64,000 nucleotides of DNA from Candidatus Latescibacterota bacterium (GCA_965205485.1 OZ242180.1:1920001-1984000); one strand, 5' to 3'; shown: positions 168 to 46,380, counted from the stretch's first letter. The notes: generated from the sequence alone by a model not told the origin. A program made the numbers and translations.

Positions 168-900
168 GCAGCTATCAGCGGTCAGTCATCAGCTATCAGC
201 TAAAAGCGAGAGACAAAGTCAAAAGCAAACATTCCTCCCCACCCCGCAGACCTTTCTTCCCGGCCCTCTCAGGAAAAGCTGTCAGCGATCAGCCATCAGC
301 TAAAAGCGAAGGGCAAAGTCAAGAGCAGATCCGCCTCCCAGCCCCGCAGACCTCTCTCCCCGGCCCTCTCTCCTACCAGGAGAGAGGGGGACAAGGCGGG
401 TTTCGCTCTATCAATGCATTTCACGACTGGCGACCGGGGGTATGGGGGGTTTTTCCGTGCTGATCCGTCCAGCGCATTTGCCCTGGAACCGCTGGCAGGC
501 CACACAGAAGATAAAATCATCGCACTCGTTTGTGAAACACCCCGTGGGTTTGCTTCGCAAGCTGTCGCGACCGGGGGTATCCCATTTGCCCTGGAACCGC
601 TGAAGAGTTGGCAGGCCACGCAAGTCCCGTTTACGCCTCTGGAGTGATTCACGGAAAAACCGGCCCCCCGCCGAGGGGCGCGCTTCTTTTTGGTCCTTTT
701 TCTTCCGCGCATAAGAAAAAGGACGTAAAAGAAAGAAAACAAAGGATTTATGAGAAATAGATCTGACATGCAAATGACTTACATGCTGTTTGCCTTTTCA
801 TATGAAATCATGCATTCGGCATACTCCCAAAAAGCTGCGTGGAGATAAGATGTTGGTGGGGAGAGATCCCCTGCCTTGCGAGGTTTCTTATCGCGCCGGC
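168..900 (+). repeat. Composite dispersed repeat, copy A
   Basis: TCAGCNA heptamer run, CCCCGGCCCTCTC module, core GGTTTTTCCGTG(448-459)...CACGGAAAAACC(650-661), GTCCTTTTTCTT/AAGAAAAAGGAC hairpin, AT-rich tail; outer ends approximate. Confidence 0.9.
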
Positions 901-1031
901 GACTTTGACACTTAGCCCCTTGATTTGTATTACACGATATAGTACTTTTACAGGTGTTGATCCAGCGGCGCCCGATGCCGGGTAGCCTGCGGAGGAACGT
1001 GAATAAGAAAAGCGTTTGAGGGGGAACACAA

Positions 1032-1226
1032 GTGGGTACGGTGACAGACGACAACGACAACAGAGATTGGGGCAGTGAGCAGGTGGCAAAGCTGCAAGGC
1101 CTTTCGGAACAGATGGATAAGCGGATTGAATTCATGGAAAAACTGTACGTCAGCATAGACCGCGAACTTTGGGCTGTGATAATGCTCGGAGTAGGGGCAA
1201 TCCTGGTACCAATTTTCATCAGGTGA
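1032..1226 (+). CDS. Small hypothetical protein, coiled region plus C-terminal TM helix
   Basis: 64-aa ORF with hydrophobic C-terminus LWAVIMLGVGAILVPIFI; start uncertain. Confidence 0.45.
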   Translation: MGTVTDDNDNRDWGSEQVAKLQGLSEQMDKRIEFMEKLYVSIDRELWAVIMLGVGAILVPIFIR

Positions 1227-1274
1227 CCGGATCTTCAATTTGTTTAAGACCCCCACGGAGAAAGGGCGGCAACC

Positions 1275-1823
1275 ATGGCCATTCCCAATCCAACGGTCAA
1301 GTTTACCTACGAAGACTACCTGAACACACCGGAAGACAGGCGGTACGAGCTTATAGACGGAGACCTGTTTATGACGCCCGCGCCTGGGGAACTTCACCAG
1401 CGAGTTTCCATTCTGCTGGGATCGAAACTGTTTCAGTTCGCATCCGAGAACAGGCTGGGGCGGGTCTATGTCGCTCCCTTCGACGTGGTGTTGTCGGACA
1501 TGGACGTGGTACAACCCGATCTGCTCTTTGTCTCTAACGAACGCAGCCGGATCATCACTCCCGAGAATGTGCAGGGCGCCCCGGATCTGGTCGTCGAAAT
1601 CCTTTCCCCGGCTACTGCCACACGAGACACGACATTCAAGCGCGTACTGTATGCGAGGCACGGCGTAAGAGAATACTGGATGGTAGACACACAGGAAGAA
1701 ACCATCACAGTGCTGCTGGCCGGCGATCGAGGATTGGAGATTGCGGAGGTCTATGGCGCAGGAGAGACGTTGACATCCGCTACCTTGGGCGGTTTCAAGT
1801 TGAATATCGACGATGTTTTTTAG
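1275..1823 (+). CDS. Uma2 family (DUF820) putative endonuclease
   Basis: TYEDY...RYELIDG, VVQPDL, APDLVVEILSP, YARHGVREYWMVD motifs. Confidence 0.93.
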   Translation: MAIPNPTVKFTYEDYLNTPEDRRYELIDGDLFMTPAPGELHQRVSILLGSKLFQFASENRLGRVYVAPFDVVLSDMDVVQPDLLFVSNERSRIITPENVQGAPDLVVEILSPATATRDTTFKRVLYARHGVREYWMVDTQEETITVLLAGDRGLEIAEVYGAGETLTSATLGGFKLNIDDVF

Positions 1824-2103
1824 TCCAAATTCAAGATAAACTGCAACCTACCGGCGGTCCCGCCTTCCTGGCAGGAAGAGGTTCATGAGGTAGGTCGCAC
1901 ACCACCGGTCTCCTGTCTTGCTTCTACACGTAAATGGCCGCATTTGGGGGGTTGACGATTCACAATGGTATGGATATATTGTATGGAGCCCCAGGACGGT
2001 GCCGGTTTTCGAGACGGGCTCGTTTTTCCGAATCGGGCATCGTGAATCAGGCCGCCCGAGGCTGTATTGATATCCTCGCGCACACAATAAGAAAATTCAC
2101 TGG

Positions 2104-2643
2104 ATGGACGACAGGAAATCTGTTTGGAGCGTTACGGATCGGGGCATATTTTCTTTCCTGTTCGTTTTATTCTTCATCAGTGGCGTTTTCCTGCGGTTTG
2201 CAGGATCTTATGAAATTCAATGGAATTTTTCAATTGTTGCGGACGTGGGGGCGATCGGGCTCTTCGCTGTGACAGCTTCATTCTTCTTAGAAGTTGTTTT
2301 AAAATTGCCGGTGAGTTCCCGAGCGCGAGCGAAAAAGCGGCGGTCAAGGCGGGAAAATCCGCCCATATTTGTCTATACGGGTGGAATTGACCAACGCCGA
2401 CCGGCGCTTTTGCAGCCGCGCGAAGACCGCTGGGAATTTTAAGACAGCTTCTTTTGGGAGGTGAAAGACGTTATGCTGGGCGTACACGAGGCTGTTAAAC
2501 AGTGGAATCTCAAGCGGGGACTTGAAAGGGGAAGAAGAGAACGTGACGAGTTGATAAGGAAGTGGCTATCGGAGGAGAGGGCGAAGGGCAGCGAGGGGTT
2601 CAGGGAAGATCCGCCGTTCCTCAACAACGGATCCGAAGATTGA
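2104..2643 (+). pseudogene. Two-TM hypothetical membrane protein interrupted by a MITE
   Basis: ORFs 2104-2442 and 2461-2643 share a frame; removing 165 bp gives a continuous 124-aa ORF. Confidence 0.7.
2290..2451. mobile_element. MITE-like element, about 162 bp
   Basis: AGAAGTTGTTTTAAAATT (2289-2306) vs AATTTTAAGACAGCTTCT (2435-2452), 16/18 inverted match; flanks TTA/TTT; internal imperfect palindrome. Confidence 0.75.
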
Positions 2644-3061
2644 CGAAAGCAACCCGTTACTGGAAGCAGAAAACCGGGGCTATCGGCGCGCCGGTTTTTT
2701 TATGCAGAACAGATATCTCCCCCGGCCCCGCAGACCTTTCTCCCCGGCCCTCTCAGAAAGAGCTGTCAGCGATCAGCCGTCAGCCATCAGCAAAAAACGA
2801 AGGGCAAAACCAGTAGCCACCGTTCCCCCTTCCCGTGGGAAGGGGGCTAGGGGGTAGGTCTCGCCCTATCAATGCATTTCACAGCTGGCGACCGGGGGTA
2901 TGGGGGGTTTTTCCGTGCTTTTCCGTCCATCGCATATGTATTGGTACTGCTGAAGTGTTGGCAGGCCACGCGAGTCCCGTTTATGCTTCCGGAGTGATTC
3001 ACGGAAAAACCGGCCCCCTGCCGAAGGGCGCCCTTCTTTTTGGTCCTTTTTCTTCGGCGCA

Positions 3062-4361
3062 TGTATAGACCGGGCAGATAGGTAACACATGTTCGGGCAC
3101 ATGGGTGACAGTTGAAAGTGTTATTGTAGACCTGTAGAAAGGAGGTCTACAATGCCTTGGCCCGAGGTGTCCGCAGTGTCTGCTCGATCAGAGTTCGTTG
3201 ATTTCGCCCATCGTGAAGGCGCCAATGTCAGCAGGTTGTGTGAACGGTATGGCATCAGCCGCAAGACGGGATACAAGTGGCTGTCCCGCTATAAACAGGA
3301 CGCGTGTTGTGACTTCGAGGACCGCAGCAGGTGTCCTGGAACGATTCCGCACCGCACGTCGAAAGCGGTCGAAGATAAAATCATCGCACTGCGAGATAAA
3401 CACCCGGCGTGGGGTGCTCGCAAGCTGTCGCGACGGTTGAAGGATCTGGGAGAACGGGAGGTGCCGGCGTTAAGCACCATTACACAGATCCTGCGTCGCC
3501 GCGGCCGGCTATCTCCGGAACCGTGTCCAGAGCGTCAACCGTGGCAGCGCTTTGAGCATCCCGTACCGAATGCGCTGTGGCAGATGGACTTCAAGGGGCA
3601 CTTCCCGTTGCGGCGCGGGGCCTGCCATCCGCTGACGGTGCTGGATGACCACTCGCGGTTCTCCGTGGGGTTGGTGGCCTGCCCCAATCAGAGAGGCGAC
3701 ACGGTTCAACCCGCCCTCACACAGATCTTCAGGACCTATGGGCTGCCCGACAAGATCCTGAGCGACAATGGCGCGCCGTGGTGGGGTACAAAAGGCGGTA
3801 CCGTCTCGCGTATCTCGATCTGGCTGATCCGCCTGGGCATCCGCCTGACACGCTGTCGTCCGTATCACCCGCAGACCCAGGGCAAGGAGGAACGCTTTCA
3901 CCGCACGTTGAACGCGGAGGTGATCGCCTATCGCGCCTGGTCCACGTTGCCCCAGTGCCAGGACGCGTTCGACCACTGGCGCGACGTCTACAACTTCGAG
4001 CGTCCCCACGAAGCGCTGGACCTCGAGGTGCCCTCCACCCGCTATGAACCCTCTCACCGTGCGTTCCCTGATGCGTTGCCGCCGATCGAATACGGCCCTG
4101 GCGACCACGTGCGGAAGGTGGGCGCGAACGGCTACTTCCGCTATCAAGGACACAGCCTTCGTGTCAGCAACGCCCTGAGGGGCCTGCACGTAGCGGTACG
4201 GCCTACAACCAAAGATGGATGCGTCGACGTCTTCTTCTGTAACCACCGCGTCGGTGCGTTCGACCTTCGGGAATATGATGACACATAAATTGCTGCACAA
4301 CACATCAAAAAGTGTTACCTATGTACCCGAACACCTGTTACCCATGTACCCGGTCCGTACA
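3062..4361 (+). mobile_element. IS481-family insertion sequence, 1300 bp
   Basis: TGT...ACA ends, about 51-bp imperfect terminal IRs, 6-bp target duplication GGCGCA at 3056-3061 and 4362-4367. Confidence 0.95.
3152..4288 (+). CDS. IS481 family DDE transposase
   Basis: N-terminal HTH (GISRKTGYKWLSRY), LWQMDFKG, LSDNG, HPQTQGKEERFHRTL, YNFERPHEAL. Confidence 0.96.
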   Translation: MPWPEVSAVSARSEFVDFAHREGANVSRLCERYGISRKTGYKWLSRYKQDACCDFEDRSRCPGTIPHRTSKAVEDKIIALRDKHPAWGARKLSRRLKDLGEREVPALSTITQILRRRGRLSPEPCPERQPWQRFEHPVPNALWQMDFKGHFPLRRGACHPLTVLDDHSRFSVGLVACPNQRGDTVQPALTQIFRTYGLPDKILSDNGAPWWGTKGGTVSRISIWLIRLGIRLTRCRPYHPQTQGKEERFHRTLNAEVIAYRAWSTLPQCQDAFDHWRDVYNFERPHEALDLEVPSTRYEPSHRAFPDALPPIEYGPGDHVRKVGANGYFRYQGHSLRVSNALRGLHVAVRPTTKDGCVDVFFCNHRVGAFDLREYDDT

Positions 4362-4694
4362 GGCGCATAAGAAAAAGGACGTAAAAGAAGAAAAAAAAAG
4401 GATTTATAAGAAAGAGATCCGGCATGCAAATGGCATATGTGTAGTCTGCCTTTCTATAAAGAATCATGCTATTCGGAAGAACAAATCGGCACGGATTTCT
4501 TCTCCCGTCTTGCGTCCACCGCCTGCCCGATTCTCCGGAACGAACTCATCCCATATTCGTTAAAGAGATTGGCGGGTAAATGTCGTCCCCGCTTTTTCTA
4601 AAGGGAAAGACACCGAGGATCCCGGGTCCCCCCTTCCTTCAGGAAGGGGGTCAGGGGGTAGGTCCTTGGGAGAAAGGGTAAACAGGAGAACCAT

Positions 4695-5520
4695 ATGAAA
4701 AAAGATCACATTTCTTACCGCAGTTCTGCCGCTCCTGATCGCATCCCACGCGTTCGCGGGCGCCTGGACCCAGAAGAAGGGCGGCTATTATCTCAAGCTG
4801 TCGGGCGGATATCTGAATACCACGCAGGATATCAACGCCGAGGGCGATAAGGTTCGGAAGGACGGCGAGGGCAGATTGCGGGACGTAAACTGCACGGCCT
4901 ATCTGGAGTACGGGATCCAGGATGAGCTCACCCTGGTGGCCACGGCCCCTTACAAGAGCATGAAGGATACCCGAACGTTCCAGACGGGGACCGCCCTGGA
5001 GAGGCGGTGGGGGTTCGGCGACGTGGAGGTCCGGATGCGCCGGCTGCTCTGGAACAGGGATTTCGTGGCATCCGTGGCCGCGGGCGGGAAGATCCCCACC
5101 TGGTACGAAGACGACGAGAGCACGCGGGTGCCGTTGAGCTCGAAGAAGATCGACGGCGACGCGCGGCTTCTCCTCGGAAAGTCCCTCTACCCGCTGCCCG
5201 GGTACGTCACGGGTGAAGTGGGCTACCGGCTGCGCGGGGGAACGTTCAGCAACGAATGGTTCTACACCCTGGAGGCCGGTCTCACCTACGATCGGATTCT
5301 CATCAAGGGATTCATTTCAGGCATCCGGACGTTCGGCAACTGCGAGCCGGGGGATGAAGTGGACCTCATCGGCGATCAGAACATCCTGAAGATTGCCCCG
5401 GGGATCATCTATAAGCTGAATTCGAGGGTGGAGCTGAGTCTGGACCTGATCCACATCGCGTCAGGATGCAACACCACCGCCGGCAATACCTTCTTCGTGG
5501 GCGTGGCCCTCAAGCGGTAG
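4695..5520 (+). CDS. Secreted/outer-membrane beta-barrel-like hypothetical protein (one extra A after the ATG)
   Basis: AGGAG RBS; ATG followed by A6; frame from 4699 reads KKITFLTAVLPLLIASHAFAGAWTQKKGG and continues into ORF 4876-5520. Confidence 0.7.
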
Positions 5521-5627: not shown

Positions 5628-5999
5628 CTTCTGTGCCTTTTGTGCTTTTTGTGGTAAATTGACTGTTGTCTTTCTTTCGAATTAAGTCTGGCAGCGTCAA
5701 CTATTTAACGCTCCCCGTAACAATCCTTCTGTGCATTATGTGCTTCTTTCAGCCATTGATCCACCAAGAGCAATAGCCACAAAAGGCACAAAAACACAAA
5801 ATGGGAGAGGTTTTATTCTGTGACCGACTAAGTTGGGGTAACGAACAACGCCCAGATTCCGCCCCGACGGTTGGCGTTTCTTCGCACTGGTTGGCTTTGG
5901 GTTCTTCTGTGCCTTTTGTGCTTTTTGTGGTAAATTAACGGTTGTTTTCTTTCGAATTAAGTCTGGCAGCGTCGACTATTTAACGCTCCCCGTAATAAT
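5628..5999 (+). repeat. About 96-bp direct repeat (5628-5724, 5904-5999) with an inverted CACAAAAGGCACAAAA unit between
   Basis: Both copies read CTTCTGTGCCTTTTGTGCTTTTTGTGGTAAATT...TTCGAATTAAGTCTGGCAGCGTCRACTATTTAACGCTCCCCGTAA. Confidence 0.9.
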
Positions 6000-7109: not shown

Positions 7110-7868
7110 ATGATCATCGACGTCAACGCGTGGGTGGGGCACTGGCCGTTCCGGCAGTTGCGACACAATACGGTACCGGGCCTGCTGAGGCTGATGGACC
7201 GCAGCGGGATCGACAGGGCGGTGGTGGCGTCGGTTCACGGCGTGTTCTACAGGAACGCCCATTCGGCCAACGAGGAGCTGGCCGCACAGGTGCTGCGCCA
7301 TCGGGACCGGTTGATCCCGTTCGCCACGCTGAATCCGGCCTACGCGGGATGGGAGGAGGACCTGCGCCGGTGCGCCGAAGACCTGGAGCTGTGCGGAATT
7401 CGCCTGGTTCCGCAATACCACGGGTACGAGCCGGATTCCGAAGCGGCGCTGGATTTCCTGGATGCCGTTGCGGACCTGGGGTGGTCCGTTCAGGTGCCGA
7501 TGCGAATCGTGGACCGGCGACAACGGCATCCCTGGGACATGGCAGATGACCTGAAGCCGGCGACGTTTCGCCGGCTTTTTAATTTGCGGCCGCACGTCCG
7601 CTGGATGATCCTGAACGGCGCCGGCTTCACCGGGCGCATATTGCCCCCGGACGTCCGCTTCCTGGTGGACGTCTCCCGCCTCACCGCGGTATTGGAGCGC
7701 AGCATCCAGGGACTTACGCAGGCATGGGGCATCGAGCGCCTGGCCTTCGGCTCGGGCATGCCGTTCAACACCCCCGCGCCCGCATTGCTGAAACTTCAGG
7801 TCCTCGACGCGCCCGACGAGGTCAGGGAAGCCATCGCCTGGCGCAACGCCGACACCATGCTCCGCTGA
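7110..7868 (+). CDS. Amidohydrolase_2 family protein
   Basis: MIIDVNAWVG, MDRSGIDRAVV, RLAFGSGMPF, IAWRNA; some canonical metal ligands appear substituted. Confidence 0.8.
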   Translation: MIIDVNAWVGHWPFRQLRHNTVPGLLRLMDRSGIDRAVVASVHGVFYRNAHSANEELAAQVLRHRDRLIPFATLNPAYAGWEEDLRRCAEDLELCGIRLVPQYHGYEPDSEAALDFLDAVADLGWSVQVPMRIVDRRQRHPWDMADDLKPATFRRLFNLRPHVRWMILNGAGFTGRILPPDVRFLVDVSRLTAVLERSIQGLTQAWGIERLAFGSGMPFNTPAPALLKLQVLDAPDEVREAIAWRNADTMLR

Positions 7869-7945
7869 CCTCTCTCCCCGGCCCTCTCTCCTATCAGGAG
7901 AGAGGGAGAAAAGCAAAGAAAACGCAACATGATCTACCAAGATCT

Positions 7946-8101
7946 GGAGCGAGGGCATCCCTGCCCTCGTACTTCGTGCAGCCGACCAATTTGCACACAA
8001 GGAGCCTAACCTAATGCTTCCCTTCCATGCGAAAACACGTCTCGATATACGGCCCCGGGACCTCGCGAATCAGCCGTCGAGGGCAGGGATGCCCTCGCTC
8101 C
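7946..8101. repeat. REPIN-like element with perfect 24-bp inverted arms
   Basis: GGAGCGAGGGCATCCCTGCCCTCG (7946-7969) and its reverse complement (8078-8101). Confidence 0.9.
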
Positions 8102-8271
8102 CGGGGGCACTTACACCGGTCCTCTCAGAAAACCAGGGGAGACGTGAGACGTTAGACGGGAGGGAGTGCCTGCCTTGTGAGGTCTCTTCTGATGCCGGAG
8201 GCAAGTAAGGAATAAAATACGGGGCAAGGGAATGGGGACGTAATGGGTGTGGGGGAGGAATTAAAATATAC

Positions 8272-10885
8272 TCATTGCCCGAACGCCCTGGCAAAGATCA
8301 CAAAATCCCCCAGTCCAATGGCGTCATCGCCGTCCAGATCGAACTTCGGATCGAAGTCCGCATCCGCGGACGTCCTGCCAAACGCTTCCGAAAACGCGAC
8401 AAAGTCCGCGAACCCCACCGTTCCGTCGCCGTTGAAGTCTGCAAACACCGCCGCCTCGATAGAAACCGGCTCGAACGTCCTGAACCCCGCTGAACGTTCT
8501 CCGTTTTTCCACAGTCGCACGTCCAGCGTATAGGCGTCCGAAACCTGCTGCTCGCGCGAAAAGGCAATGTCCGTGCTGAACCGTCCGTTCACAACCGGTG
8601 CGACGAATTGGGTGTCGGACCGGCCGGATGGCGATGTGTCATCCCCGCCGAACGTGAAGAAACTGAATTCGATCTGGGATACCGACGGATCTGACGTGGC
8701 GCCGTCAACCCGCACCGGGTGACCGATCCGGTATTCAATGGGCATCGGCGCGTCGAGCCGGATGCCCTGGAAGAAATCCACGGGAAGCAGGACGGGCCCT
8801 GCTCCTTGAATTACGACGAAGGGGCGGAATGAGTCCTGTGGAAGCGCGTAGTTCGTATTGCCGCGTTGCCTGTTGATCGCCAGCTGATGAACGCCGGACT
8901 GCGCGTGCGTGAAGAGGACCGTCTTGCTGAAGTGCCTCTCGATCACGGGCGCCTCGAAGTGCACGGATCTGTCGATATCCTCGTGCCAGAAGCTGAGGTT
9001 GATCGCCGTCAGCGTTGTATCGGATACTGCGCCGGATATCTGGAGCGCCTGTCCCGTGCGCACTTCAACGGGGACCGGCGAGGAGAACACAATGTCGGTA
9101 AAGTAGCTGGTGGGCAATGGAGACTTCTCCGGTCCTTCCGCTATGGTGAAGACGCCGAAGGTGCCCGCCGGATCGAAGTCCTGTTGAGCCTGCCGTCTGG
9201 TTCCGACCCGGAGCCGATAGTCACCCGCCTGCTCGTGCGAGAAGAAAAACGTCTGGCGGAATTTTTCGTCGCGGATCGGGACAACGTAACGGTTTCTTCT
9301 GCCGAAATCCTCGAGCAGGAGCGTGAACTCGATCTCGGATATTGACGTATCGGATACAGCGCCCGAAACTTGAATCGGTTTGTAGGACTGAAAGGGTCCC
9401 GAAACCGGCGCATCGAGCGAAATCCCTGAAGAAATCGGCGGGAATCGCGATGCGGGTTTGGTCGCGAGGCGGAACGGGGATGAGGAACACCCTGGGAGAA
9501 CCCTCGGCGTCGGTTTGAATCCATATGGTTGTGGTCTCGCGGTACGACAATCGCAGAAAAGCTGCGGAAAGGGGTTGGACGGTTCCCTGTCCGGGGGACG
9601 TCTCCGGAGTGACGGGAATTCCGTTGGAAGGGGAAACCGTCGTGCGCCGCTTGTCGTGTCCGCCAGAAAGGGCGTGGTGTATTCGAGCGCAGGGTTGAAC
9701 CCCGACCCGCTCAGATACAGCCGCGACAGAAATCTCTCGTAAATGTCGGTGATGCGGTCATTGGCGGCCTCTCTCACGTTCCGTAATCCGACGTGGCTCG
9801 TCTGAACCAGGCGCGGGAGGATTTCATGCCGAAATCTTCGATGAGGCTGCCGCACAAACAGATAGGCTGCGCCGCGGACGGCCGGGTTATCGACCGACCC
9901 GCGCAGCGGCGTACCGTGCGGGTTGGCGAGGAAGCGTTCGATATTCTGTCGATTGTGCAATTCGTGCGCGCCGACCAGGTCCTCACAGAGGAGGGACAGT
10001 CCTTCGTTGAGCCAGTTCTCTTCTGGCAGGCCGTTTCGAACCAGCACGTGCTGGTGGAAGCTTAAGAGATGTTGAAATTCATGGGCAAGCACTGCGCCGG
10101 TAACGGCGGGATCGTTGAAAGGATTAATGAAGAGCAGGTCGACCTGGTCGCCGTTGCCGCCCTGGCTCTCGGGCAGGATCGATGCGGCGTTGAAGAATCC
10201 GCGTACCACGGTGGTATCGTCACCCACTTCGTCAACCAGGTGGGTGTAGAGCAGGTGAATCCTCTCGACGCCCACCGCACGCGGGTCGCGTACGAGCGCG
10301 GACGTGACAACGGGATAGATCCTCAGGCCGAACAGGCCGACGTCCCCCTCGATCCGCGTCCTGCTCACGCGGCCGGTGTCGGACACGTCCACGTAGGCTC
10401 TCGCCCGGTGGCCGTCCGCGAAGAGCACCGCCGTAACGGACGTATCGGGCACGTTTCCGAATGCGGGAAATTGCGAACCGGCGGGCGCCGACCAGATGCG
10501 GCGCGACCTTTGTCGCCGGGGGGCGGTATCCGCCGGTCTGTCGTACCCGGCGGGCAAGCTCGTGCTCCTTTCTTCGAAGCTGCGCTTCCAGACCGGCGCC
10601 CGGGATTGACGGCACCCTCGCATCGGGAGTGGGAACGCTCACGGACGTTGGCGCCGCTCGGGATATTGAAAACAGCGAACCCAGTACTCCGGATTCTCCT
10701 TGAGATCGGGCGTCGCTTCCGTATTCAGGGAATACAGGAACATCATGTAGTCCCGGTCGGTAAAATCGAGGGTCAGATGCGACTCGTCCCCAATAGTTGA
10801 CCGCCTGGCGTTCCCCGATCTTCTGCGCGGGAACCGGCTGAAAGGAGAATAACAACAGGAGAATGGAAACGGAAAAACGTGTCAT
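8272..10885 (-). pseudogene. Secreted Zn-metallopeptidase + 3 repeat domains + dockerin-like EF-hand tail; multiple frameshifts (decay or sequencing indels)
   Basis: Signal peptide MTRFSVSILLLLFS at 10885, HEFQH...WLNEGLS, DFNGDGTVGFADF/DLDGDDAIGLGDF; paralog-matching segments lie in different frames. Confidence 0.8.
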
Positions 10886-11301
10886 TGTTGGCCGTCCTGT
10901 AAATTTCGTGTACGTAATACACGCTGCCCGGACAACCGCACGTCCCGGGCGGGTGGATGAACCCGCCGGCGCCGGCGGGATGGAGCCACACGTCAATGTC
11001 GGCTCGTCGGGTCGACCTGAGGGCGAAGAGGATCGCCCCCTCGCCCCACATTGCAAAACATCAGGCAACCCGGCGACATTGTCAAGCCATTTCACCAGAC
11101 TTCATCGGGAAAACACTTCAGGAAGGCAGTTGCGAAGGGAATACCGGCAACACATCATGACGACGTCACATCGCGGGCGGGGATGATACGGGAGACACAA
11201 CGACGCGCTTACGATGGGGGACGGGAAGTGAAGAGTACGCGTTACTTCCAGCTTTCGATCGATGTCAGTCTCAGTTGATCACATTCCGCTTGATGGCCGG
11301 C

Positions 11302-12579
11302 CTAATTCCCGACGGGTTGCCCGAACGCTTTCGAAAAAATCAGAAAGTCAGTAAATCCGACGGTTCCGTCACCGTCCAGATCGAACCTGGAATCGAAGGC
11401 CTCATCGTCGGAAGACGCGCCGAACGCATCTGCAAACAGGATGAAATCCGGAAACCCAATCGTTCCATCACGATCGAAGTCCGGGGAAGGGGGCGGCATT
11501 AAGGTTATTGGTCCGAATCGTCTGGGACCCAGCGAGCGGTTGCCCCGTCTCCACAGATACACATCCAGCGAACCATCGCCAGGGCGGTGCCCGTGCTCGG
11601 GTGAAAACTCGATATTTGCGATGAATTCACCTTGGGTCACAGGTGAGCTGAAGTCGACCCGGCCTCGGAAATTCTGACGCGATTTGTGTACAAAGAACTC
11701 AAAGTCGATTTGACGCACGGAAGGATCGGACACGGTGCCGGTAACTCGAACGCTTCGTCCAAGCGCATAGACGACTGGCATCGGCGACGTAAGTTCGATT
11801 TCCTCGAAGTAGTCGAAAGGAAAGAACACTGCACCCTCGCCTTCTGTTACGTTAATGGGGCTGAATTCGTCCCGACGTATTTGAACAGTGTGCCCGGAGC
11901 GATACCTTTCCAGTGCCAGTTTGTAAACACCTGCCGTATTGTGCGGCAGGAATATCGGCTTGTTTAGTCGACCGTCGATCACCGGGGCTATGTGCCACAT
12001 CGGAAAATCACCGTTCCTATTGTAGAAGATCAGCTTGACCATGTATAGTGATGGATCGAATACCGTTGCGGAAACACGAACAATCTGACCGGTCGTCATT
12101 TCAACGGGGATCGGTGAGTCCAGTTCAATATCGGAAAAATAATCCACGGGAATCGGCGATATCTCTGGGGCTTGTTGAACAATGAAGGGACGAAATGCGC
12201 CTGCTGAGGAGTATGGCGGCTTCCCCCGTATGAGTCTCAACTGCAAGACATAGTCATCTGCCTGTTCGTGGGAAAAGAACAACGTATGTTTGAATCCCTG
12301 GTCGTGTACCGGAACCATGTACCAATACGCCGACCCACATTGGTCTATTTCTTCACTGTCGTTGTAAAGGAATGCAAACTGGATCTCGGATATCAGAGGA
12401 TCGGATACCGTACCGGAAAAGTGAATCGGCGTGTACGACAGAAATGGGCCGGACACGGACGCATCCAGCGAGATCCCTGCGAAGAAATCTCTTGATATCG
12501 TCGTATTGGCTTGACCGTCCGCGGCAAGCGGCTTTAGACCGAGTGAGATCAGAAGGAACGCAACTGCCAGAGTTCTCAT
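11302..12579 (-). CDS. Secreted protein, 3 beta-rich repeats + dockerin-like EF-hand tail
   Basis: Signal peptide MRTLAVAFLLISLG, three D[FY]FxxIxLxxP...SGTVSDP units, PDFDRDGTIGFPDF...DLDGDGTVGFTDF. Confidence 0.85.
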   Translation of the reverse strand: MRTLAVAFLLISLGLKPLAADGQANTTISRDFFAGISLDASVSGPFLSYTPIHFSGTVSDPLISEIQFAFLYNDSEEIDQCGSAYWYMVPVHDQGFKHTLFFSHEQADDYVLQLRLIRGKPPYSSAGAFRPFIVQQAPEISPIPVDYFSDIELDSPIPVEMTTGQIVRVSATVFDPSLYMVKLIFYNRNGDFPMWHIAPVIDGRLNKPIFLPHNTAGVYKLALERYRSGHTVQIRRDEFSPINVTEGEGAVFFPFDYFEEIELTSPMPVVYALGRSVRVTGTVSDPSVRQIDFEFFVHKSRQNFRGRVDFSSPVTQGEFIANIEFSPEHGHRPGDGSLDVYLWRRGNRSLGPRRFGPITLMPPPSPDFDRDGTIGFPDFILFADAFGASSDDEAFDSRFDLDGDGTVGFTDFLIFSKAFGQPVGN

Positions 12580-12882
12580 CTCCAGCCTCCCTGCAAGTTT
12601 TCGACCGATTGCGCACCGCTGGAAACTGATACGTTGCAAATGCTTTGGCAATCTGCAACGATTAACCTCAATCCAAAAAAAACAGCAACGCGGCGACGCG
12701 ATAAAACCCTCCGAAACGGGGCGTTATCGACGTAAAGAAGGGCGTTTTTTCCCTTCACGTACAGTGTCCTGGTGTATCCTGGTAATCAGCCGTCTAATCG
12801 CCTTTATTAACTCGCACATATTCGAATTAACCTTCCCGAAAAATGACGAATCAAGGTCAAAATCAGGAATAGATCCTTCGCA

Positions 12883-14883: not shown

Positions 14884-15022
14884 CCCTGGCCTCCTTTCAT
14901 ATTCTCAACCGTACGCACGTCGGTGGAAACCGACCGGGTAGTGGTACGATACTTGCAATAGGCCTTATGTTCTGCCATTGAAAAGCGCAGTTGGATCGGT
15001 AAAACCGAAAATTGAAAAAATG

Positions 15023-15038
15023 TGCAAGCCTGCTGCCA
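15023..15038 (-). promoter_or_regulatory. Candidate sigma54 promoter
   Basis: TGGCAGCAGGCTTGCA (GG-N10-GC) upstream of the 14883 start; counterpart at 19104-19119. Confidence 0.45.
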
Positions 15039-15612
15039 TTGTTCAATAGTAACCGGGAAGTTGCACGTTGTTGTCAAATAATATTGTTCAATCATAGCAG
15101 GAAACGTACTGAATTCGCACGGCTTCCTGATCCATCGCGGTCAACTATAGTCATACCCACCCTCCCACAGATCCGAATAATCCCTGCAGGTCGCAATCGT
15201 AGTTGGCCGGATTCCAGCCCTGCTTGTTCGTTATCCGGTCTTGACCCCTGTCCATTGTTTGTCAATCCTGTTCACTCGGTCTCTCATCATGTTCAATCGG
15301 CTTTTCACTTTGTTCAGTCCTGGTCGGGGTTTTGATCCTGCACAATCCGCTTCAAATCCTGTTGCGTTCTGCTCCTGGTTCTTAACCTCAATTCCGCAAA
15401 AGCCGCAACGCGGCAACTCGACGAAACCCTTCGAAACAGGCCGAAATGGTCGTCATGAAGGACATTTTTTCAGTTCACGTACAGTGTCCTGGTGTATCCT
15501 GGTAATCAGCAGTCTAATCGCTTTTTTAACTGACACATATTCGAATTAACGTCCTCGAAAAATGAGGAATCAAGGTTAATCCTGCTTAATCCTTTCCCGG
15601 TTTTTCTCTCAT

Positions 15613-16875: not shown

Positions 16876-16969
16876 TCCGGCCTCCAGCTGTGTTTGAGAC
16901 GGAAAAAATGCCGCAGGAAATCGGTCTGGACGGAGCGCCATGGGGTTCGTTCGCTGTAACCGGAGCGAG

Positions 16970-21719: not shown

Positions 21720-21762
21720 TGAGTATGCCGGTAGTGGCCTGAGATTTGCACGAATGCCGGGT

Positions 21763-29433: not shown

Positions 29434-29467
29434 GCGCCGGCACAATTGCGTCTGAACCTTTGCCGCT

Positions 29468-29566
29468 CCCTGAGCACTTGCCCTGCTTGTGCTGCTTGCA
29501 CTGAGCTTGTCGAAGTGGCTTGTCGAAGCAAGCCTGCGGTCCCTGAGCCTGTCGAAGGGTCGAAGG
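29468..29566 (+). repeat. CCCTGAGCCTGTCGAAGGG-type REP-like cluster
   Basis: CTGAGCTTGTCGAAG and CCCTGAGCCTGTCGAAGGG units; same family at 40893-40983. Confidence 0.7.
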
Positions 29567-29637
29567 GGCGGCGACAATCTCATCGAACACCAGATCCTCG
29601 CCCCGCCCGTGTAGGGGCGTCCATACAAGGTCACGAA

Positions 29638-31104: not shown

Positions 31105-31205
31105 CAACCGTGGGACAGGAGTCGTAGTCGCTCCACCATAAGTAAAGCAGCACACACGGGATGCCCGAAGGAACCCAAGCCTTCGTGCATCCCGTTTCAT
31201 TTGTC

Positions 31206-32043: not shown

Positions 32044-32610
32044 AAAAAGCTATCAGCGATCAGCCGTCAGCTAAAAACGAAAGGCAAATTCAAAAGCAAC
32101 CTCTCTCCCCGGCCCTCTCTCCTAAAGGAAAGAGGGAGCACGGCCAGGGTCTCGCGCCATAGCAGATTTTTCCGTTCGAGCGACCGGGGGTATGGGGGGT
32201 TTTTCCGTGTTAATCCGTTCCGCACCGATGTCTTGGCACACGTCAGGGGGTCGCAGGCCACCGAGTTGCATTCGTGCCTCTGAGGCGGTTCACGGAAAAA
32301 CCGGCCCCCCGCCGAGGGGCGCGGTTCTTTTTGGTCCTTTTTCTTACGCGGATAAGAAAAAGGACGTAAAAAATTGAAAAATAAGAAGTTATCATAAAAG
32401 AGCCGACTTGCAAATGACAAATCCTCTTTTGCCTTTCTGTTCAAAATCGTTCCTACCGCGTGTTCCTCAAGAACGGGAAGACGTGAGACGGAAGAGGGTA
32501 GAGATCGCCTGCCGTGTAATGTTTCTTCTCATGCCGCAGGCAAGTCGGAGGAACAAATCGGCAAGGGTTTCTTCTACCGTCTCGCCTCTACCGTCTAACC
32601 GCTTCTTCCC
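32044..32610 (+). repeat. Composite dispersed repeat, copy E
   Basis: Core IR 32198-32209 / 32291-32302 plus flanking modules. Confidence 0.9.
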
Positions 32611-41084: not shown

Positions 41085-43439
41085 TCAGTTTCGCAGGGGT
41101 CTGTTGGTTCGCAGAATACTGTGGATCCGTTCCCGGGTCTTTGCTTCGCCGGTAAGGGCGACAAAGACTTCGCGCTCCAGTTCGAGAAGGTAGTCCTCGT
41201 GTACGTTGGCCGGGCCCGTAAGGTCTCCGCCGGTCAGCACATAGGCGAACCGGTTGGCCAGAAAGCGGTCGTATTCGCTGATGAATCCCGACTGGAGCAT
41301 ATTCCAGGTTGTCACCTCGAACCGCGCGCGGGCCGGTTGTCCGAGGACCCTGATGGCATTGCGGACCGGGGGCGCCGCGTACCCCTGGCCGGAAAGGCGC
41401 AGGACCTCCTGGCGCGCGGCCTGGAGCCGGTGGTCCTCGTTCATGACAATGGGCGAACCGGGCGGCAGAAACCCGTACTCGCGCGCCTGCCAGGCGCTGT
41501 TGGACACCTTCGCCATGGCCACCGTTTCGAAGGCCCTCGTCAGAAACGGCTGGATGTGGCTGTCGTGCTCGGAAGGTGCGCGCTCGTGCGAAATCGCCGC
41601 CATCCGCATGGTGCCGCACCCCCCGGGAATGAGTCCAACGGCGAGTTCCACAAGACCGATGTAGGACTCCGCCGCGGCCACCGGGCTGGCGCAGGCCAGC
41701 GTGAGTTCGCAACCGCCGCCCAGCACGCGGCCGTGGGTGGCAACGACGACGGGTTTGGCGGCGTAGTGGACACGCTGTATCATCCCTTGAAAATTGACCA
41801 GGAGTCGGTCCATCCGGTCGAATCGATTCTGTTCTGCGTGCGCGACCATCTCTCCCAGATTCGCGCCAACGGAGAAGTTTTTTCCCCTGTTGCAGATGAC
41901 CATTCCCCGGTAATTCCCCGCTTCGACGATGTCGACCGCTTCGACGAGGCCGCGTACGAGCGATTCTCCCATGGAATTCGCCTTCGAACGGTATTCGAAG
42001 AGGGCGATATCCTCGCCCAGGTCCAGCAGGGCGGCTTCCTCGTTCTCCCAGCGGACGTGCTGTTTCTCCGGGCGAATCGCGGGCATGGCGGATTCATCCG
42101 TCGTTCCGGAATCCGGCGCGTATCCGCGGCCGGGCAGATAGACCCGTGAGCGGTCGCGGAATCCCTTTGCCCCCGCCCCGGACATGGTTTCGACCCAGTC
42201 CGGCAGGGGGATGTTTTCGGCCGCCATGGCATCGAGGACGGTATCGAACCCGATGGTATCCCACATTTCAAAGGGTCCGGCCTCCCAGCCGAATCCCCAG
42301 CGAAGGGCCCGGTCTATGTCTGCCGGGTTCGCCGTGATCTCGGGAATGCGGCGCGCGGCGTAACCCAGCGTTTCCAGGAGATGCCCCCGGAAGAAATCGC
42401 CCGCCCGCCCGTCATGCGCGTAAAGGTCGCGCAGGCGCCGGGAGAGTTCCCGCTGCTTGCGTACGGGTTCGAGATCGCCCAGTCGCTGTTCCCGCGGAGG
42501 TTCCCACGCGCGGGTAGCCGGATTGAACGAAAGGATGTCCCGGCCTTCTTTTCTGTAGAAGCCTCTGCCCGCCTTGGCGCCGGTGGCCCCGTCTTCGACG
42601 AGATGGGTCAGCGCTCCGGGAACCTGGAACCGGTCGCGGCTTTCATCCTCCGGCAGGGCATCGTACAGGTATTCGGCGACGTGTACGAGGGTGTCCAGCC
42701 CGACAACGTCGGCTGTTCTGAACGTGGCCGACCTGGGGCGTCCCAGTAGCGGGCCCGTGAGGGCGTCAATTTCCTCGATCGTATATCCGCCCTCGGTAAA
42801 GGCCCGGATACACTGCATCATGGCGTATACGCCGACGCGGTTGCCGATGAAGCCCGGCGTGTCGTTTGCGACCACAATGCCCTTGCCAAGTCGTACGCGG
42901 CCGAACATGGAGATGCGTTCCATAACGGCCGGATCGGTTTCAGGAAGGGGAATGAGTTCGAGGAGCTTGAGGTAGCGCGGCGGGTTGAAGAAGTGGGTTC
43001 CCAGGAACCGGCTCCTGAAATCCGATGACCGGCCCTGAGCGATCAGGTGGATTGGAATGCCGCTGGTGTTGGTGGAGATAACGGCGCGACTGTTCGCGGC
43101 GGCTTCCACGCGCGCCATAATCTGTTGCTTGACGTCGGGCTTCTCGACGACGGCCTCGATGATCCAGTCCACATCCGAGGCGCGATCGAAGTCGTCTTCG
43201 ATGTTGCCGGGAGTAATGCGTCGGACGGTATCTTCAGTAAACAGGGGGGCCGGGCTGACGCGCTCGAGGCCTTTCATCGCGCCTTCGACAATCGCGTTTC
43301 TGTTCTTCCCGTCGCCGGGAAGGTCCAGCAGATGGACGGACAGGCCGGCGTTCGCGAGGTGGGCGGCAATCTGGGATCCCATGACGCCAGCGCCCAGAAC
43401 GGCAGCGGTGCGAAACGGGGGATGTGCTGCGCGGTGCAT
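41085..43439 (-). CDS. 3-hydroxyacyl-CoA dehydrogenase / enoyl-CoA hydratase (FadN-like)
   Basis: LGAGVMGSQIA, STNTSGI, GTHFFNPPRY, C-terminal crotonase domain FSVGANL / LGGGCE. Confidence 0.94.
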   Translation of the reverse strand: MHRAAHPPFRTAAVLGAGVMGSQIAAHLANAGLSVHLLDLPGDGKNRNAIVEGAMKGLERVSPAPLFTEDTVRRITPGNIEDDFDRASDVDWIIEAVVEKPDVKQQIMARVEAAANSRAVISTNTSGIPIHLIAQGRSSDFRSRFLGTHFFNPPRYLKLLELIPLPETDPAVMERISMFGRVRLGKGIVVANDTPGFIGNRVGVYAMMQCIRAFTEGGYTIEEIDALTGPLLGRPRSATFRTADVVGLDTLVHVAEYLYDALPEDESRDRFQVPGALTHLVEDGATGAKAGRGFYRKEGRDILSFNPATRAWEPPREQRLGDLEPVRKQRELSRRLRDLYAHDGRAGDFFRGHLLETLGYAARRIPEITANPADIDRALRWGFGWEAGPFEMWDTIGFDTVLDAMAAENIPLPDWVETMSGAGAKGFRDRSRVYLPGRGYAPDSGTTDESAMPAIRPEKQHVRWENEEAALLDLGEDIALFEYRSKANSMGESLVRGLVEAVDIVEAGNYRGMVICNRGKNFSVGANLGEMVAHAEQNRFDRMDRLLVNFQGMIQRVHYAAKPVVVATHGRVLGGGCELTLACASPVAAAESYIGLVELAVGLIPGGCGTMRMAAISHERAPSEHDSHIQPFLTRAFETVAMAKVSNSAWQAREYGFLPPGSPIVMNEDHRLQAARQEVLRLSGQGYAAPPVRNAIRVLGQPARARFEVTTWNMLQSGFISEYDRFLANRFAYVLTGGDLTGPANVHEDYLLELEREVFVALTGEAKTRERIHSILRTNRPLRN

Positions 43440-43582
43440 TCGGGCTCACCTTTCCGGACGGGTTCAGGGAGAGAGGTTTCGCGTCGCTGGAAGTCAGATC
43501 GCGGGCGGGCGTATGCCAGTCCCGAAAGGTAGTGTACAACCGTTCGCCGATCAAGAACGAAACGCATGATGCCGAACATCAG

Positions 43583-44348
43583 AAGGAGCTGTCAGCTATC
43601 AGCCGTCAGCTGTCAGCAGAAGCGAAACACGAAAGGCAAAGATCAAGAAGCAACCCCTCCACCCAGCTCGGCAGACCTCTCTCCCCGGCCCTCTCTCCCA
43701 CCGGGAGAGAGGGAGGATAAACAGGTTTCGCGTGCCGGTCAACTCTAGACACATTGATCGAAAGGCAATCGCCATCCCGGCACTTCGCAAAACCTGCACA
43801 ACCACCCATCACCGTTCCCCCTTCCTCTCAGGAAGGGGGTTAAGGGGTAGGTCTCGCCCCATCAATGTATTTCACGTCTGGCGACCGGGGGTATGGGGGG
43901 TTTTTCCGTGCTGATCCGTCCAGCGCATTTGCACTGGCACTGCTGAAGGGTTCGTAGGCCACACAAATCCCGTTTATGCCTCCGGAGTGATTCACGGAAA
44001 AACCGGCCCCCTGCCGAAGGGCGCGCTTCTTTTTGGTCCTTTTTCTTCCGCGCATAAGAAAAAGGACGTAAAAAAAAGAAAAATAATGATTTAATTAAAG
44101 AAAATGGGATCTGTCAGTCACAAAAACCATCATTTGTCTTTTTGTCAAATTATGCCTACGGCGTGTTCCTTAAATGCGGGGAGACGTAAGCCGGGAGACG
44201 TTAGAGATTTCCTGCCTTGAGAGGTTTCTTATTGTGCCGGAGGCAAAACGGAAAAAATGTCGGGCATATATGTCTTCTAACGTCTCACCTCTCCCGTCTA
44301 ACCGCATTTCATCTACCGTCTACCGTCTTCCCTCTCCCCGCCTTTAGG
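43583..44348 (+). repeat. Composite dispersed repeat, copy F (most complete)
   Basis: All modules present; core IR 43899-43910 / 43993-44004. Confidence 0.9.
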
Positions 44349-44792
44349 ATGCGTGAGCGCTTCCATCACAGGCCGGATGCCAGGCCCGTATTCGTACGTC
44401 ATCCGGCCCCCGGTATATCCGCTCAGGGCAACGAGTACCGCCGTCGCCGCCACACCCGCGAGATACAGGAAGCGAACGGATCCAGCGAACTTTTGCTTGA
44501 GGATGAGGTGGGTGCGGAGGAGGGCCAGTACGATGGCGAGCCACGTGGCGGCGGTGGAGATGGATTCGTGCTGTTCGAGCGCGGCGGCGATGCCGGGGAT
44601 CCCGGCGGCCGCGTCTTCAGCCGCGTTTCCGGTCAGCGATGCCGCAATCGCCGAAACAGCGCCAAGAACCAGGAGGAGGTATCCGGTGCGGAGAAGCTGG
44701 TCCCTGCGAAACAGAATGCCGGCGGCGTCGCAGAAGAAGCCCACAGTGAGCAGGGCGACGGGAAAGTGGACGATAAACGGATGGTAGTCCAT
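44313..44792 (-). CDS. DUF2231-like membrane protein
   Basis: HPFIVHFPVALL, ASLTG, C-terminal SGYTGGRMTYEYG. Confidence 0.85.
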   Translation of the reverse strand: MDYHPFIVHFPVALLTVGFFCDAAGILFRRDQLLRTGYLLLVLGAVSAIAASLTGNAAEDAAAGIPGIAAALEQHESISTAATWLAIVLALLRTHLILKQKFAGSVRFLYLAGVAATAVLVALSGYTGGRMTYEYGPGIRPVMEALTHPKGGEREDGRR

Positions 44793-44822
44793 AGATGGGG
44801 TTGTGAACCGGGACCCGGGCGA

Positions 44823-45611
44823 TCAGCTCCACGCGCCTTTGGCCATCATCCCGCCGTCCACGCAGACGTTTTCGCCGGTCATGAAGGACGCTTTTTCGCT
44901 GGCGAGGAAAAGCACGGCATTCGCGATGTCCTGCGGCATGCCGATCCGGCCGATGGGATGGGACCGGCCCATGCGTTCCCGATGTTCCTTCTCGTCGCCG
45001 CCCATGGCCTGAAGGGCCTCGTCGACCAGCGGTGTGTCGATGGTGCCGGGGTTGACGGCCAGCACGCGCACGTTGTCTTCCGCGTATTCCAGGGCGAGTT
45101 GCCGCGTCAGGGAGAGGATGCCGCCTTTGCTGGCGGCGTAGGCGCAGACGCCCTTGGTGGATTGCAATCCCTGGACGCTGGCCGTGTTGATGATCACGCC
45201 GCCCCCGCGTCTGATCATCTCGGGTACGCAGTGCCGGGTCATCAGGAAGGCGCTCTTGAGGTTGACGTTCAGGATGTCGTCCCACGTTTCTTCTGGCAGT
45301 TCATGGGCGGGCAGGTAGCTGCTGACGGGCTGAACGCCGACGTTGTTGCAGAGGATATCCACGCCGCCCCATTCTGAAACGGCGGTCCGCGCCAGCGCCC
45401 GGCAGGCGTCGTCCCGCGCCACGTCGGCTGCCTGAAACCGGATATGGCCGCGAAGAGAACCGTTTTCCGCCGCCAGGCCTTCCCCGGCCTCCACGTCCAC
45501 GTCGGCGCAGAGTACGCGGGCGCCCTCCCGGGCGAATGCAAGGCAGATACCCCTGCCGATGCCCTTGGCCCCGCCGGTGACGATGACCGCTTTATCCTGA
45601 AATTCCGACAT
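44823..45611 (-). CDS. SDR family oxidoreductase
   Basis: TGGAKGIG, NNVG, YAASK, NPGTIDTP, VDGG. Confidence 0.95.
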   Translation of the reverse strand: MSEFQDKAVIVTGGAKGIGRGICLAFAREGARVLCADVDVEAGEGLAAENGSLRGHIRFQAADVARDDACRALARTAVSEWGGVDILCNNVGVQPVSSYLPAHELPEETWDDILNVNLKSAFLMTRHCVPEMIRRGGGVIINTASVQGLQSTKGVCAYAASKGGILSLTRQLALEYAEDNVRVLAVNPGTIDTPLVDEALQAMGGDEKEHRERMGRSHPIGRIGMPQDIANAVLFLASEKASFMTGENVCVDGGMMAKGAWS

Positions 45612-45739
45612 GGCGCACTCCTGGTATTGTTCGGTCCGCGTAGACACAGGTGCGACAGGGACAATAAGACAAAGCGGGCGCTGGATGTCAAATGTTAGTG
45701 TTGCGTCCCGCGAACCTCTCCCCCCACGCCTCACACAGA

Positions 45740-46380
45740 GTGATCAGCTGTCAGCCATCAGCTAAAACCAAAGGCGAGAATCAAAGGCAGCTTAAGGCAA
45801 GAACGAAAAGCAAAGTCAAAAGCGACGTCTCCCCACCGCCCCGCAGACCTCTCTCCCCGGCCCTCTCTCCCAAGTGAGAGAGGGAGCAAGGCGAGGTCTC
45901 GCCCTATCAATGCATTTCACAACCGGCGACGGGGGGTACGGGGGGTTTTTCCGTGTTCGTCCGTCCCGCGCATTTGCACTGAAACTGCTGAAGGGTTGGC
46001 AGGCCGCCGGGTTGCATTGGTTCCTTTGAGGTGATTCACGGAAAAACCGGCTCCCCGCCGAGGGGCGCGGTCTTTTTGGTCCTTTTTCTTACGCGTATAA
46101 GAAAAAGGACGTAAAAAAAAGAAAAATAATGATTTATTTCAAAAAATAGAGTCATGCACCAAGCAAAATCCGGCGTTTGCTTTTTTGTTCAAAGTCATGC
46201 CTGCGGCGTGTTTCTTGAAACCGGGAAGACGTGAGACGAAAGAGAGTAGAGATCGCATGCCGTGTAAGGATTCTTCTCATACCGCAGGCTAGTCGGAGGA
46301 ACCTATTGGCAAGGGCTTCTTCTCCCGGCTAACCTCTCCAGGTCTCCCCTCCATTTCTTCTCCCGTCTCCCCGCCTTTAA
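45740..46380 (+). repeat. Composite dispersed repeat, copy G
   Basis: Core IR 45944-45955 / 46037-46048 plus flanking modules. Confidence 0.9.

Follow-up and report, generated by a model that had tools for sequence, protein, structure and literature searches.

An ordered, BIME-like mosaic of small repeats around a core with a predicted pseudoknot–triplex end in a Candidatus Latescibacterota genome

The repeat family and its copies

The stretch of DNA analysed here, referred to as the window, comprises 64,000 nucleotides of a Candidatus Latescibacterota bacterium (GCA_965205485.1 OZ242180.1:1920001-1984000); in the genome termed G000, a single contig of 5.13 Mb, it is G000:C1:1920001-1984000. 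It carries a dispersed family of repeats built from short modules, named here by letters, and from a core of about 190 nt (core D). A reading made from the sequence alone had claimed seven copies of such a family, and profile matches bear this out: D cores lie at window positions 430-729, 2888-3061 (ending 4362-4380), 25010-25210, 25685-25870, 32180-32370, 43881-44072 and 45926-46115, with nhmmer E values for the main pieces of 1e-64 to 1e-45, far past chance. Fragments that it had listed near 4630, 7870, 8140, 49395 and 50573 are present as well. The genome-wide count of copies that it had proposed was made with the core profile, which finds 42 near-full-length D cores in G000, seven of them in the window. 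A diverged second core type, T, is represented by 17 near-full-length copies and one partial copy, none in the window. When profiles of ten further modules were seeded from the window copies and matches no more than 170 bp apart were merged, 220 module clusters were obtained, 109 of which are single modules. The family is a mosaic of several small repeat kinds, without genes, and not one element; database records that bear the core are mainly from Candidatus Latescibacterota. That the copies are distinct loci is supported by short-read contigs (all from one study, which may include the source sample), which link unique flanks to repeat modules at several points in window 1-5200, and by the presence of the same sites in congeners.

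Cluster 6 illustrates how the modules are laid out, on the plus strand except where stated. It opens with module A, a run of TCAGCNN heptamers with a tail (43592-43667), followed by module B on the minus strand (43671-43717), a purine-motif triplex repeat resembling BoxC/TM type B with a CCG second loop. Module G (43724-43809) forms the spacer between B and module H (43815-43853), a triplex repeat resembling BoxC/TM type A that has a TTA second loop and is inverted relative to B. The linker C (43852-43884) precedes core D, behind which lie module E (44077-44172), an AT-rich tract with an inverted T-type core tail that includes a GNA mini-hairpin, and module F (44179-44308), in which inverted purine/pyrimidine heptamer arms surround a GNA mini-hairpin.

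The remaining clusters, also on the plus strand, are variations on this theme. Cluster 1 (174-899, delimited with module hidden Markov models) reads A, B-head, A, B, C, D, E and partial F, and cluster 2 (2730-4664) reads B-head, A, H, C, a D split by an insertion sequence (IS) of the IS481 family, E, partial F and H. A cluster that lacks a core (7867-8230) holds B, S and partial F, S being a repetitive extragenic palindrome (REP) of the RAYT type. Clusters 3 and 4 together (24794-25870) run A, R, D, E, F, B, X, A-tail, B, C, D; cluster 5 (32048-32605) is A, B, D, E, F; and cluster 7 (45741-46351) is A, A-tail, B, C, D, E, F. There is a lone module F at 49395-49524, which is absent from the orthologous site in five of five congeners, and a lone module A at 50573-50644, followed by an S-type REP on the minus strand (50746-50770).

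Module order and polarity

Throughout G000 modules usually follow one another as A, inverted T, R or B, G, H, C, D, E, F, after which a cluster may return to B or A. Where a cluster holds a single D, the counts upstream and downstream of it were 38:1 for A, 21:0 for B, 12:0 for C, 13:1 for R, 11:1 for T, 0:21 for E and 2:16 for F, and the transitions from B to G and from G to H were seen 14 and 13 times. The fixed order claimed from the window therefore holds genome-wide, with the amendments that it is cyclic rather than strictly linear (F passes to B five times) and that module E holds an inverted T-core tail. Adjacent polar modules lie on the same strand in 153 of 155 cases, and T is inverted in 17/17 multi-module clusters. 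Where D and T lie within 600 bp of each other they are back-to-back, with their knotted ends outward and 109-270 bp apart, in 11 of 12 pairs.

Structure of core D

In the core of cluster 6 the stem P1 (43899-44004, plus strand) is made by 43899-43910 pairing with 43993-44004. It encloses an interior of fixed length (82 nt) with conserved TCCGT, AGG(C/G)CA and GAGG..TT motifs, and is followed by the hairpin P2, which has a GCCGA loop (44009-44021, plus strand). P1, P2 and the terminal stem keep their pairing despite changes on both sides. In an alignment of 51 rows 90.2% of cells pair vs 86.4% after shuffling, and doubly changed pairs number 8 vs 4.7 (0/500 shuffles), in a test that is inflated by relatedness and in which the last helix of the T rows is out of register. 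The wobbles in P1 (6 GT and 4 AC) are not decisive between DNA and RNA. Within the interior, mutual information gave no base-pair covariation; its two segments measure 36+29 or 36+28 nt in 73 of 78 parsed D cores and 34+27 or 35+27 nt in 51 of 54 parsed T cores. A guide or spacer array was rejected by inspection, the variable segments being related subfamilies of fixed length, and a hammerhead reading of the CTGAGG motif was rejected by eye, stem II being lacking.

Among 150 other genomes of the phylum a covariance model detects the core in 59: it is present in 18/18 members of the family and 29/30 of a sister family (f2), and in 0/64 of another family. Against Rfam the window has no match at the gathering score and its portion 43400-46500 chance-level matches only; 20 + 20 loci from relatives likewise returned no relevant family, and a sub-threshold match to the Burkholderia model Bp1_684 falls just downstream of the knots in two relatives. 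The sequence-only reading had found no named family for the repeat. For the core this stands in that it lacks an Rfam match, but B and H have the BoxC/TM layout and the 3′ end of the core recurs at TwoAYGGAY loci. No description of the core was found in the open-access literature searched, which covers main texts; the supplements of PMC11109978 and bioRxiv 10.64898/2026.09.22.753630 lie outside that scope and could hold the motif.

The predicted knotted 3′ end

The 3′ end of the core is predicted to be an H-type pseudoknot with a pyrimidine triplex. In cluster 6 it would span 44021-44067 on the plus strand, the predicted parts being S1a (44021-44026), the third strand (44027-44034), S2a (44035-44047), a loop that contains S1b (44048-44055) and S2b (44056-44067). 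The ends have the layout S1a, pyrimidine tract, S2a, loop, S2b. The pyrimidine tract mirrors the T-tract of S2a and runs parallel to the purine strand that it matches, as in the class IV arrangement of PMC4666352.

A detector without a fixed S1a yielded 118 distinct ends; three were unparsed, and 23 AT-rich-flanked ones, mostly on the opposite strand, served as the control. Of 86 distinct forward ends, 74 have C in both tracts, 10 have none in either and 2 have it in a single tract, and the T-runs are of equal length (3, 4 or 5) in 72/74 ends vs 4/15 of the control. Pairing of S1a with the loop was assessed by permutation, with figures that are overstated because the sequences are related: the mean best helix was 4.55 vs 3.87 with loops permuted among 67 combinations (0/3000), and in a fixed register 41/48 cells pair in G000 vs 33.7 permuted (1/5000) and 99/112 at Latescibacterota loci vs 84.5 (0/5000). 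The doubly changed S1 variants include GCCCG/CGGGC, TGCCC/GGGCA, CGTGC/GCACG and CGTCC/GGACG. Loop 3 measures only 2-4 nt and would strain an S1 of 5-6 bp.

The end is found far beyond this lineage. A pattern with GGCGC and at least four T fixed matches at least 121 metagenome stretches, most with unrelated bodies and, among those listed, of 28-69% GC; the core model has 94 matches in the first 80 of these loci, several as back-to-back pairs. One relative matches unannotated records of Variovorax, Comamonas, Ralstonia, Pasteurella, Burkholderia, Paraburkholderia, Aeromonas and Pseudoalteromonas. A T-like pattern picks out 17 loci in viral contigs, two of which (L292 and L302) pass the RF01731 gathering score and end, as T does, in the layout S1a-TTTT-spacer-TTTT-S1b-AAAA. 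The D-type end gave 0 matches in viral contigs and the window core none in plasmids. At a Variovorax locus (L288:1324-1685) a BoxC-type inverted pair lies between two related elements, the same mix of modules outside the phylum.

Extended TwoAYGGAY elements of Pseudomonadota (RF01731) have been described as pseudoknotted at the 3′ end, arranged in divergent doublets and flanked by repeats, and a mobile-element-like expansion has been suggested for them (bioRxiv 10.64898/2026.09.22.753630). The core is a hitherto uncatalogued member of a group, itself widespread, that has predicted pseudoknot–triplex ends, and it stands closest to these elements.

Insertions and a probable assembly error in the cores

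Copy 2 is unusually long because an IS481-family element of 1300 bp (3062-4361, plus strand) has inserted in the terminal loop of its core. The element carries an open reading frame (ORF; 3152-4288) that scores above the cut-off of NCBIfam NF033577, is flanked by a 6-bp duplication (3056-3061 and 4362-4367) and is matched by one contig of 1300 nt. The statement that the window lacks a cognate transposase holds in that none is cognate; a transposase is present, but as a guest. Full-length IS copies of two families were checked in G000, and 4/4 (two IS481 and two of a family here called IS1182-like) have a D core's terminal loop as their site. The IS481 element was not found in 14 congeners, so that its targeting is seen in two copies. 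REPs have been reported as targets of ISs (PMC1525189).

Core 1 contains an insert of ~95 nt that resembles a piece of IS481 (roughly 490-582, limits approximate). This is probably an assembly or consensus error, because no contig covers it in 4/4 runs and the contig reaching 583 continues as normal core in two of them. Internal fragments of the IS1182-like element at or near clusters elsewhere (G000:C1:1737734-1737808 and 1169937-1169980) may be similar consensus errors.

Turnover at orthologous sites

Comparison with relatives, another check proposed from the sequence alone, revealed, for the most part, different strings of modules and not sites that are cleanly empty. At six window sites in five congeners, whose flanks are 86-98% identical, the site holds F alone, A-B-R, X-R-D-F, A-T-D-F or nothing, as labelled by patterns that miss some diverged copies; the edges often retain a heptamer stub. 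For 4/5 congener cores at orthologous sites the local G000 core ranks only 7th to 34th of 39 in likeness, and one such core in congener G006 reaches 93% likeness to a distant paralog, against 58% or 76% to the pair of cores at the site where it lies. Such different content at the same site in close relatives points to rewriting rather than to simple filling and emptying. Sub-segments of a core are nearly uncorrelated in affinity (rho 0.18, interior vs hairpins), cores lying close together are slightly more similar than those far apart (0.77 within 30 kb, 0.72 beyond 600 kb), and core copy number ranges from 5 to 49 among congeners. Of the kinds of element proposed from the sequence alone, a non-autonomous, BIME-like mosaic (BIME, bacterial interspersed mosaic element) is supported, the family being intergenic, multicopy, ordered and polymorphic among relatives, whereas the alternative of a MITE (a miniature transposable element with inverted repeats) is not, since at orthologous sites the mosaic is not delimited by common terminal inverted repeats or by a target duplication. 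The lineage-wide BIME-like mosaic is real, and most of its modules belong to known or previously noted classes.

Genome position and gene context

According to simple gene calls made for this analysis, clusters lie between tandem, convergent and divergent genes in 92, 17 and 24 cases (expected 88, 16 and 29), so that they are not enriched between convergent genes, and their sense:antisense ratio is 48:44; the modules are indifferent to gene direction. They are unevenly spread along the chromosome. If dnaA (1.66 Mb) is taken as the origin, the clusters number 106, 46, 32, 30 and 6 by fifths of distance from it, where intergenic space predicts 49, 41, 43, 47 and 40. In the congener G008 the 49 cores fall 29, 6, 9, 4 and 1. 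Two parS-like sites lie at 1.651 and 1.658 Mb, and the GC-skew maximum at 4.09 Mb fits a terminus opposite dnaA.

In G000 a cluster has the polarity of its neighbour in 91 of 132 cases, in blocks of 50-100 kb; co-orientation in G008 (30/48) is not significant. The window lies inside a run of 13 plus-strand clusters that comes after 13 minus-strand ones. The polarity flips at ~1.915 Mb of G000:C1, near the density peak, and local skew shows no inversion there. Targeting of the lagging strand was considered and rejected, the bias being weak and not replicated. In E. coli, TM repeats have been found nearer the origin in K-12 and not in other strains (PMC4666352).

Links between modules and protein genes

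Several modules recur beside protein genes. A-type arms bracket a four-helix-bundle gene at 1.7296 Mb of G000, and in congeners A arms flank one clade of these genes and F-type arms a second. Among 26 such loci scored of 30 fetched in the genus, six have at least three F units downstream of the gene, and different heptamers are found in the remaining clades. In congeners DUF559 genes are flanked by B-G-H arrays, with tandem arrays at L135 and L138; a DUF559 gene is present in 17 of 21 family members and absent from G000. S doublets surround the RAYT genes at L125 and L126, and D, T, A, B, F, H and R are near none of 15 RAYT loci, save for one H at L118. No candidate reverse transcriptase (RT; PF00078) was found in G000, which does not fit a retroelement of the short interspersed nuclear element (SINE) kind. 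ORFs running through the element have no NCBIfam match, and clustering of the neighbours of cores yields only syntenic host genes and shadow frames.

Other features of the window

A separate element of ~165 bp at 2289-2452, which folds as one long rod, is MITE-like and lies outside the mosaic family. It has at least 40 copies of 82-97% identity spread genome-wide, and its summed contig depth is thousands of times that of its flanks in runs X1, X3 and X4. Between genes at 5630-5950 there are two near-identical stretches of inverted CACA(A/G)AA-type unit runs, related to module X, for which no partner gene was found. The minus strand of 8272-21598 holds a run of long secreted-type proteins with EF-hand/dockerin-like tails, together with a WD40 protein. 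At ~21760-21830 lies the truncated start of a GxxExxY gene (PF13366), which is whole in G002 and G006 at the syntenic site, among tandem repeats. A gene ending near 30580, in 28606-31130, shifts frame in G000 and looks contiguous in congeners, possibly owing to a frameshift error. Outside the window, a small GIY-YIG gene (G000:C1:1885690-1885990) is frameshifted and flanked by hairpin repeats of its own, not D or T, in an Ssn-like layout.

Proposed mechanism and alternatives

The mosaic probably consists of non-autonomous, BIME-like repeats that act as single-stranded DNA (ssDNA) and are shuffled by copy-and-replace recombination. On this account the modules would function as folded ssDNA, and the family would spread when the interior of one copy is copied over that of another through short shared modules, recombination at heptamer and hairpin stubs doing the shuffling. 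Fixed order and polarity would then follow because such an exchange needs matching modules at both ends. Four-helix-bundle, DUF559 and RAYT proteins may seed or cut their modules in trans, and extra forks or copies near the origin could produce the gradient in position. For the D/T core the enzyme would be expected to be a single-strand nuclease or recombinase, either trans-acting or of the host, that is encoded away from the cores.

The folds would form in vivo and in DNA. Folding as DNA is favoured by the indifference of the modules to the direction of transcription, by the purine-motif triplex modules and by the GNA mini-hairpins. Among GCC-NNN-GGC mini-hairpins a GNA loop, with all four N represented, occurs in 108 of 130 within clusters vs 589 of 3906 outside, and such hairpins have been described as a DNA motif (PMC13037366). 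Modules B and H show the layout of pyrimidine stem, purine stem and purine third strand, from which a triplex is predicted, and that layout is reported to be unable to form in RNA (PMC4666352).

Several observations weigh against this account. The protein links are partial: of the 26 scored four-helix-bundle genes, A arms lie on both sides of three and F arms of two; B or H is beside 8 of 15 DUF559 loci, S (by pattern) beside 2 of 15 RAYT loci and R beside 0/15, and a suspected link between module X and GxxExxY genes was not confirmed (1/8). G000 itself, with its 42 cores and 97% completeness, has no detectable RAYT, DUF559, GxxExxY or RT gene, a scan of it for Y1 being likewise negative, and no recurring ORF was found beside 53 core loci or 156 more. 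The fifth core at an orthologous site ranks 2nd of 39 and may have been inherited in place. The bias to the leading strand is weak (81/133) and by hand count is not seen in G008 (23/49); the position of the origin is uncertain because the GC-skew minimum lies at 1.06 Mb, away from dnaA. To these must be added the relatedness behind the permutation figures for the knot, and its geometry: about 1 nt bridging the lower 4-6 bp of stem 2 would suit A-form RNA more than B-DNA.

That geometry, with the deep conservation of the interior motifs, favours folding as RNA, and it is conceivable, if rather unlikely, that the other suggestion made from the sequence alone, a multicopy structured RNA, holds for the core only: D/T would be an RNA resembling TwoAYGGAY, riding in DNA-repeat mosaics, with a 3′ knot that protects the end or binds protein and an interior that serves as a protein-binding loop. 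The motifs and their spacing are kept across the order, as in family f2, and the H-type topology with its U-rich loop 1 resembles telomerase-type triplexes; the end is, moreover, common to TwoAYGGAY loci, which are treated as RNAs in bioRxiv 10.64898/2026.09.22.753630. An RNA is harder to reconcile with a random orientation to genes, an interior that does not covary, fast turnover of sites and ISs inserted through the loop of the knot, and in distant relatives GNA tails follow directly after the knot (16 of 19 tails). An improbable alternative is a MITE-like or composite transposon with T as its left end and D as its right end, whose autonomous parent would have a transposase between them and into which the other modules would have been inserted later. 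The outward-facing pairs, which recur in metagenome loci, would suit it, as would locus L208 (347-2050), where an ORF of 310 aa, possibly a passenger gene, lies between two outward-facing knotted ends. This is a single case, and the ORF, which may be similar to DUF4238, has no NCBIfam match. Of the 42 D cores, however, 30 have no T within 600 bp, and no target duplication or fixed outer boundary was seen.

Even less probable is that these are structural or regulatory sites maintained by the host, such as bidirectional terminators, mRNA stabilisers and integration host factor (IHF)/gyrase or origin-domain organisers, whose turnover would be a neutral exchange of equivalent modules. Sites stay occupied across congeners while their content varies, density rises towards dnaA in both G000 and G008, a T tract follows P2 and 19 of 26 E modules contain an IHF-like string by a relaxed consensus; the strict consensus is found in only 3 of 26. 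The lack of enrichment between convergent genes and the tenfold range in copy number count against host sites, and PIT/BoxC elements are reported to be without promoter or terminator activity (PMC4666352).

Copy-and-replace shuffling of ssDNA repeats is the reading retained here, and a wider version of it can be offered tentatively, as possible but doubtful: D/T and extended TwoAYGGAY elements might form a pan-bacterial intergenic superfamily defined by the 3′ pseudoknot–pyrimidine triplex, which would be the ssDNA recognition end for a probably host-encoded copying machinery that rewrites near-origin slots with polar, ordered modules from unrelated repeat-protein systems. Whilst BIME-like mosaics as a general class have long been known, four puzzling classes of repeat (BoxC/TM triplexes, heptamer runs, REPs and TwoAYGGAY-type knots) here stand in one ordered grammar in one genome. 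The knotted end is a short, testable object, an oligomer of ~45 nt with natural compensatory variants for which folding as a pseudoknot–triplex is predicted in DNA, in RNA or in both, and related ends in culturable genera (Variovorax, Ralstonia, Burkholderia, Pasteurella and Pseudoalteromonas) make the multiplication of enzyme-less repeats testable.

Comparison with known systems

With extended TwoAYGGAY elements the D/T cores have in common a 3′ pseudoknot, divergent doublets (68% there vs 11/12 here) of similar spacing, upstream short-repeat arrays of fixed orientation, adjacent REP arrays, large variation in copy number and no known enzyme (bioRxiv 10.64898/2026.09.22.753630). They resemble these elements but are not TwoAYGGAY elements because the AYGGAY hairpins are lacking, the motif occurring on the knot strand in 1/42 D and 1/17 T. 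Their body is one stem around an unpaired interior of fixed length, and a triplex appears nowhere in the main text of the preprint. The RF01731 model found nothing in 15 genomes and likewise nothing in control genomes, and did detect 2 of 17 other loci.

Modules H and B correspond to types A (TTA) and B (CCG) of the BoxC/PIT/TM repeats in their second loops, form an inverted A+B pair as in E. coli, and are, like those repeats, intergenic, nearer the origin and at unstable loci (PMC4666352). The strict TM_ECO consensus has 0 matches in the window and genome, the stems of B and H being 9-10 nt. In contrast to the BoxC/PIT/TM repeats, B and H stand in chains with other modules, and in relatives they flank DUF559 genes, a connection not made in the parts of PMC4666352 cited here. 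Small nucleases of the Ssn type, which act on single-stranded NTS/SRM repeats, provide a precedent for a small nuclease on a single-stranded repeat (PMC11893778); the GIY-YIG gene of G000, however, is frameshifted and its flanking hairpins are not those of D/T. For the heptamer-armed four-helix-bundle (PF05635) cassettes nothing was found in the literature search. Within the genus certain clades of these genes are enclosed by A or F arms, whereas the arms in the window are gene-less and form the edges of larger mosaics.

MITEs differ from the mosaic in that the latter has no common ends or target duplication at orthologous sites, and its IS481 and IS1182-like elements have entered the core by insertion. 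A further parallel is with BIMEs and the REPINs associated with RAYT proteins, which are likewise intergenic ordered mosaics with inverted doublets, polymorphic loci and a role as IS targets (PMC3333891, PMC6006769, PMC1525189). Module S is itself a RAYT-flanking REP, the only module for which a cognate RAYT was found, but the present mosaic differs from BIMEs and REPINs in joining at least ten types of module, which have ties to three protein families unrelated to one another, with a knotted core of 190 nt, in a host without a RAYT.

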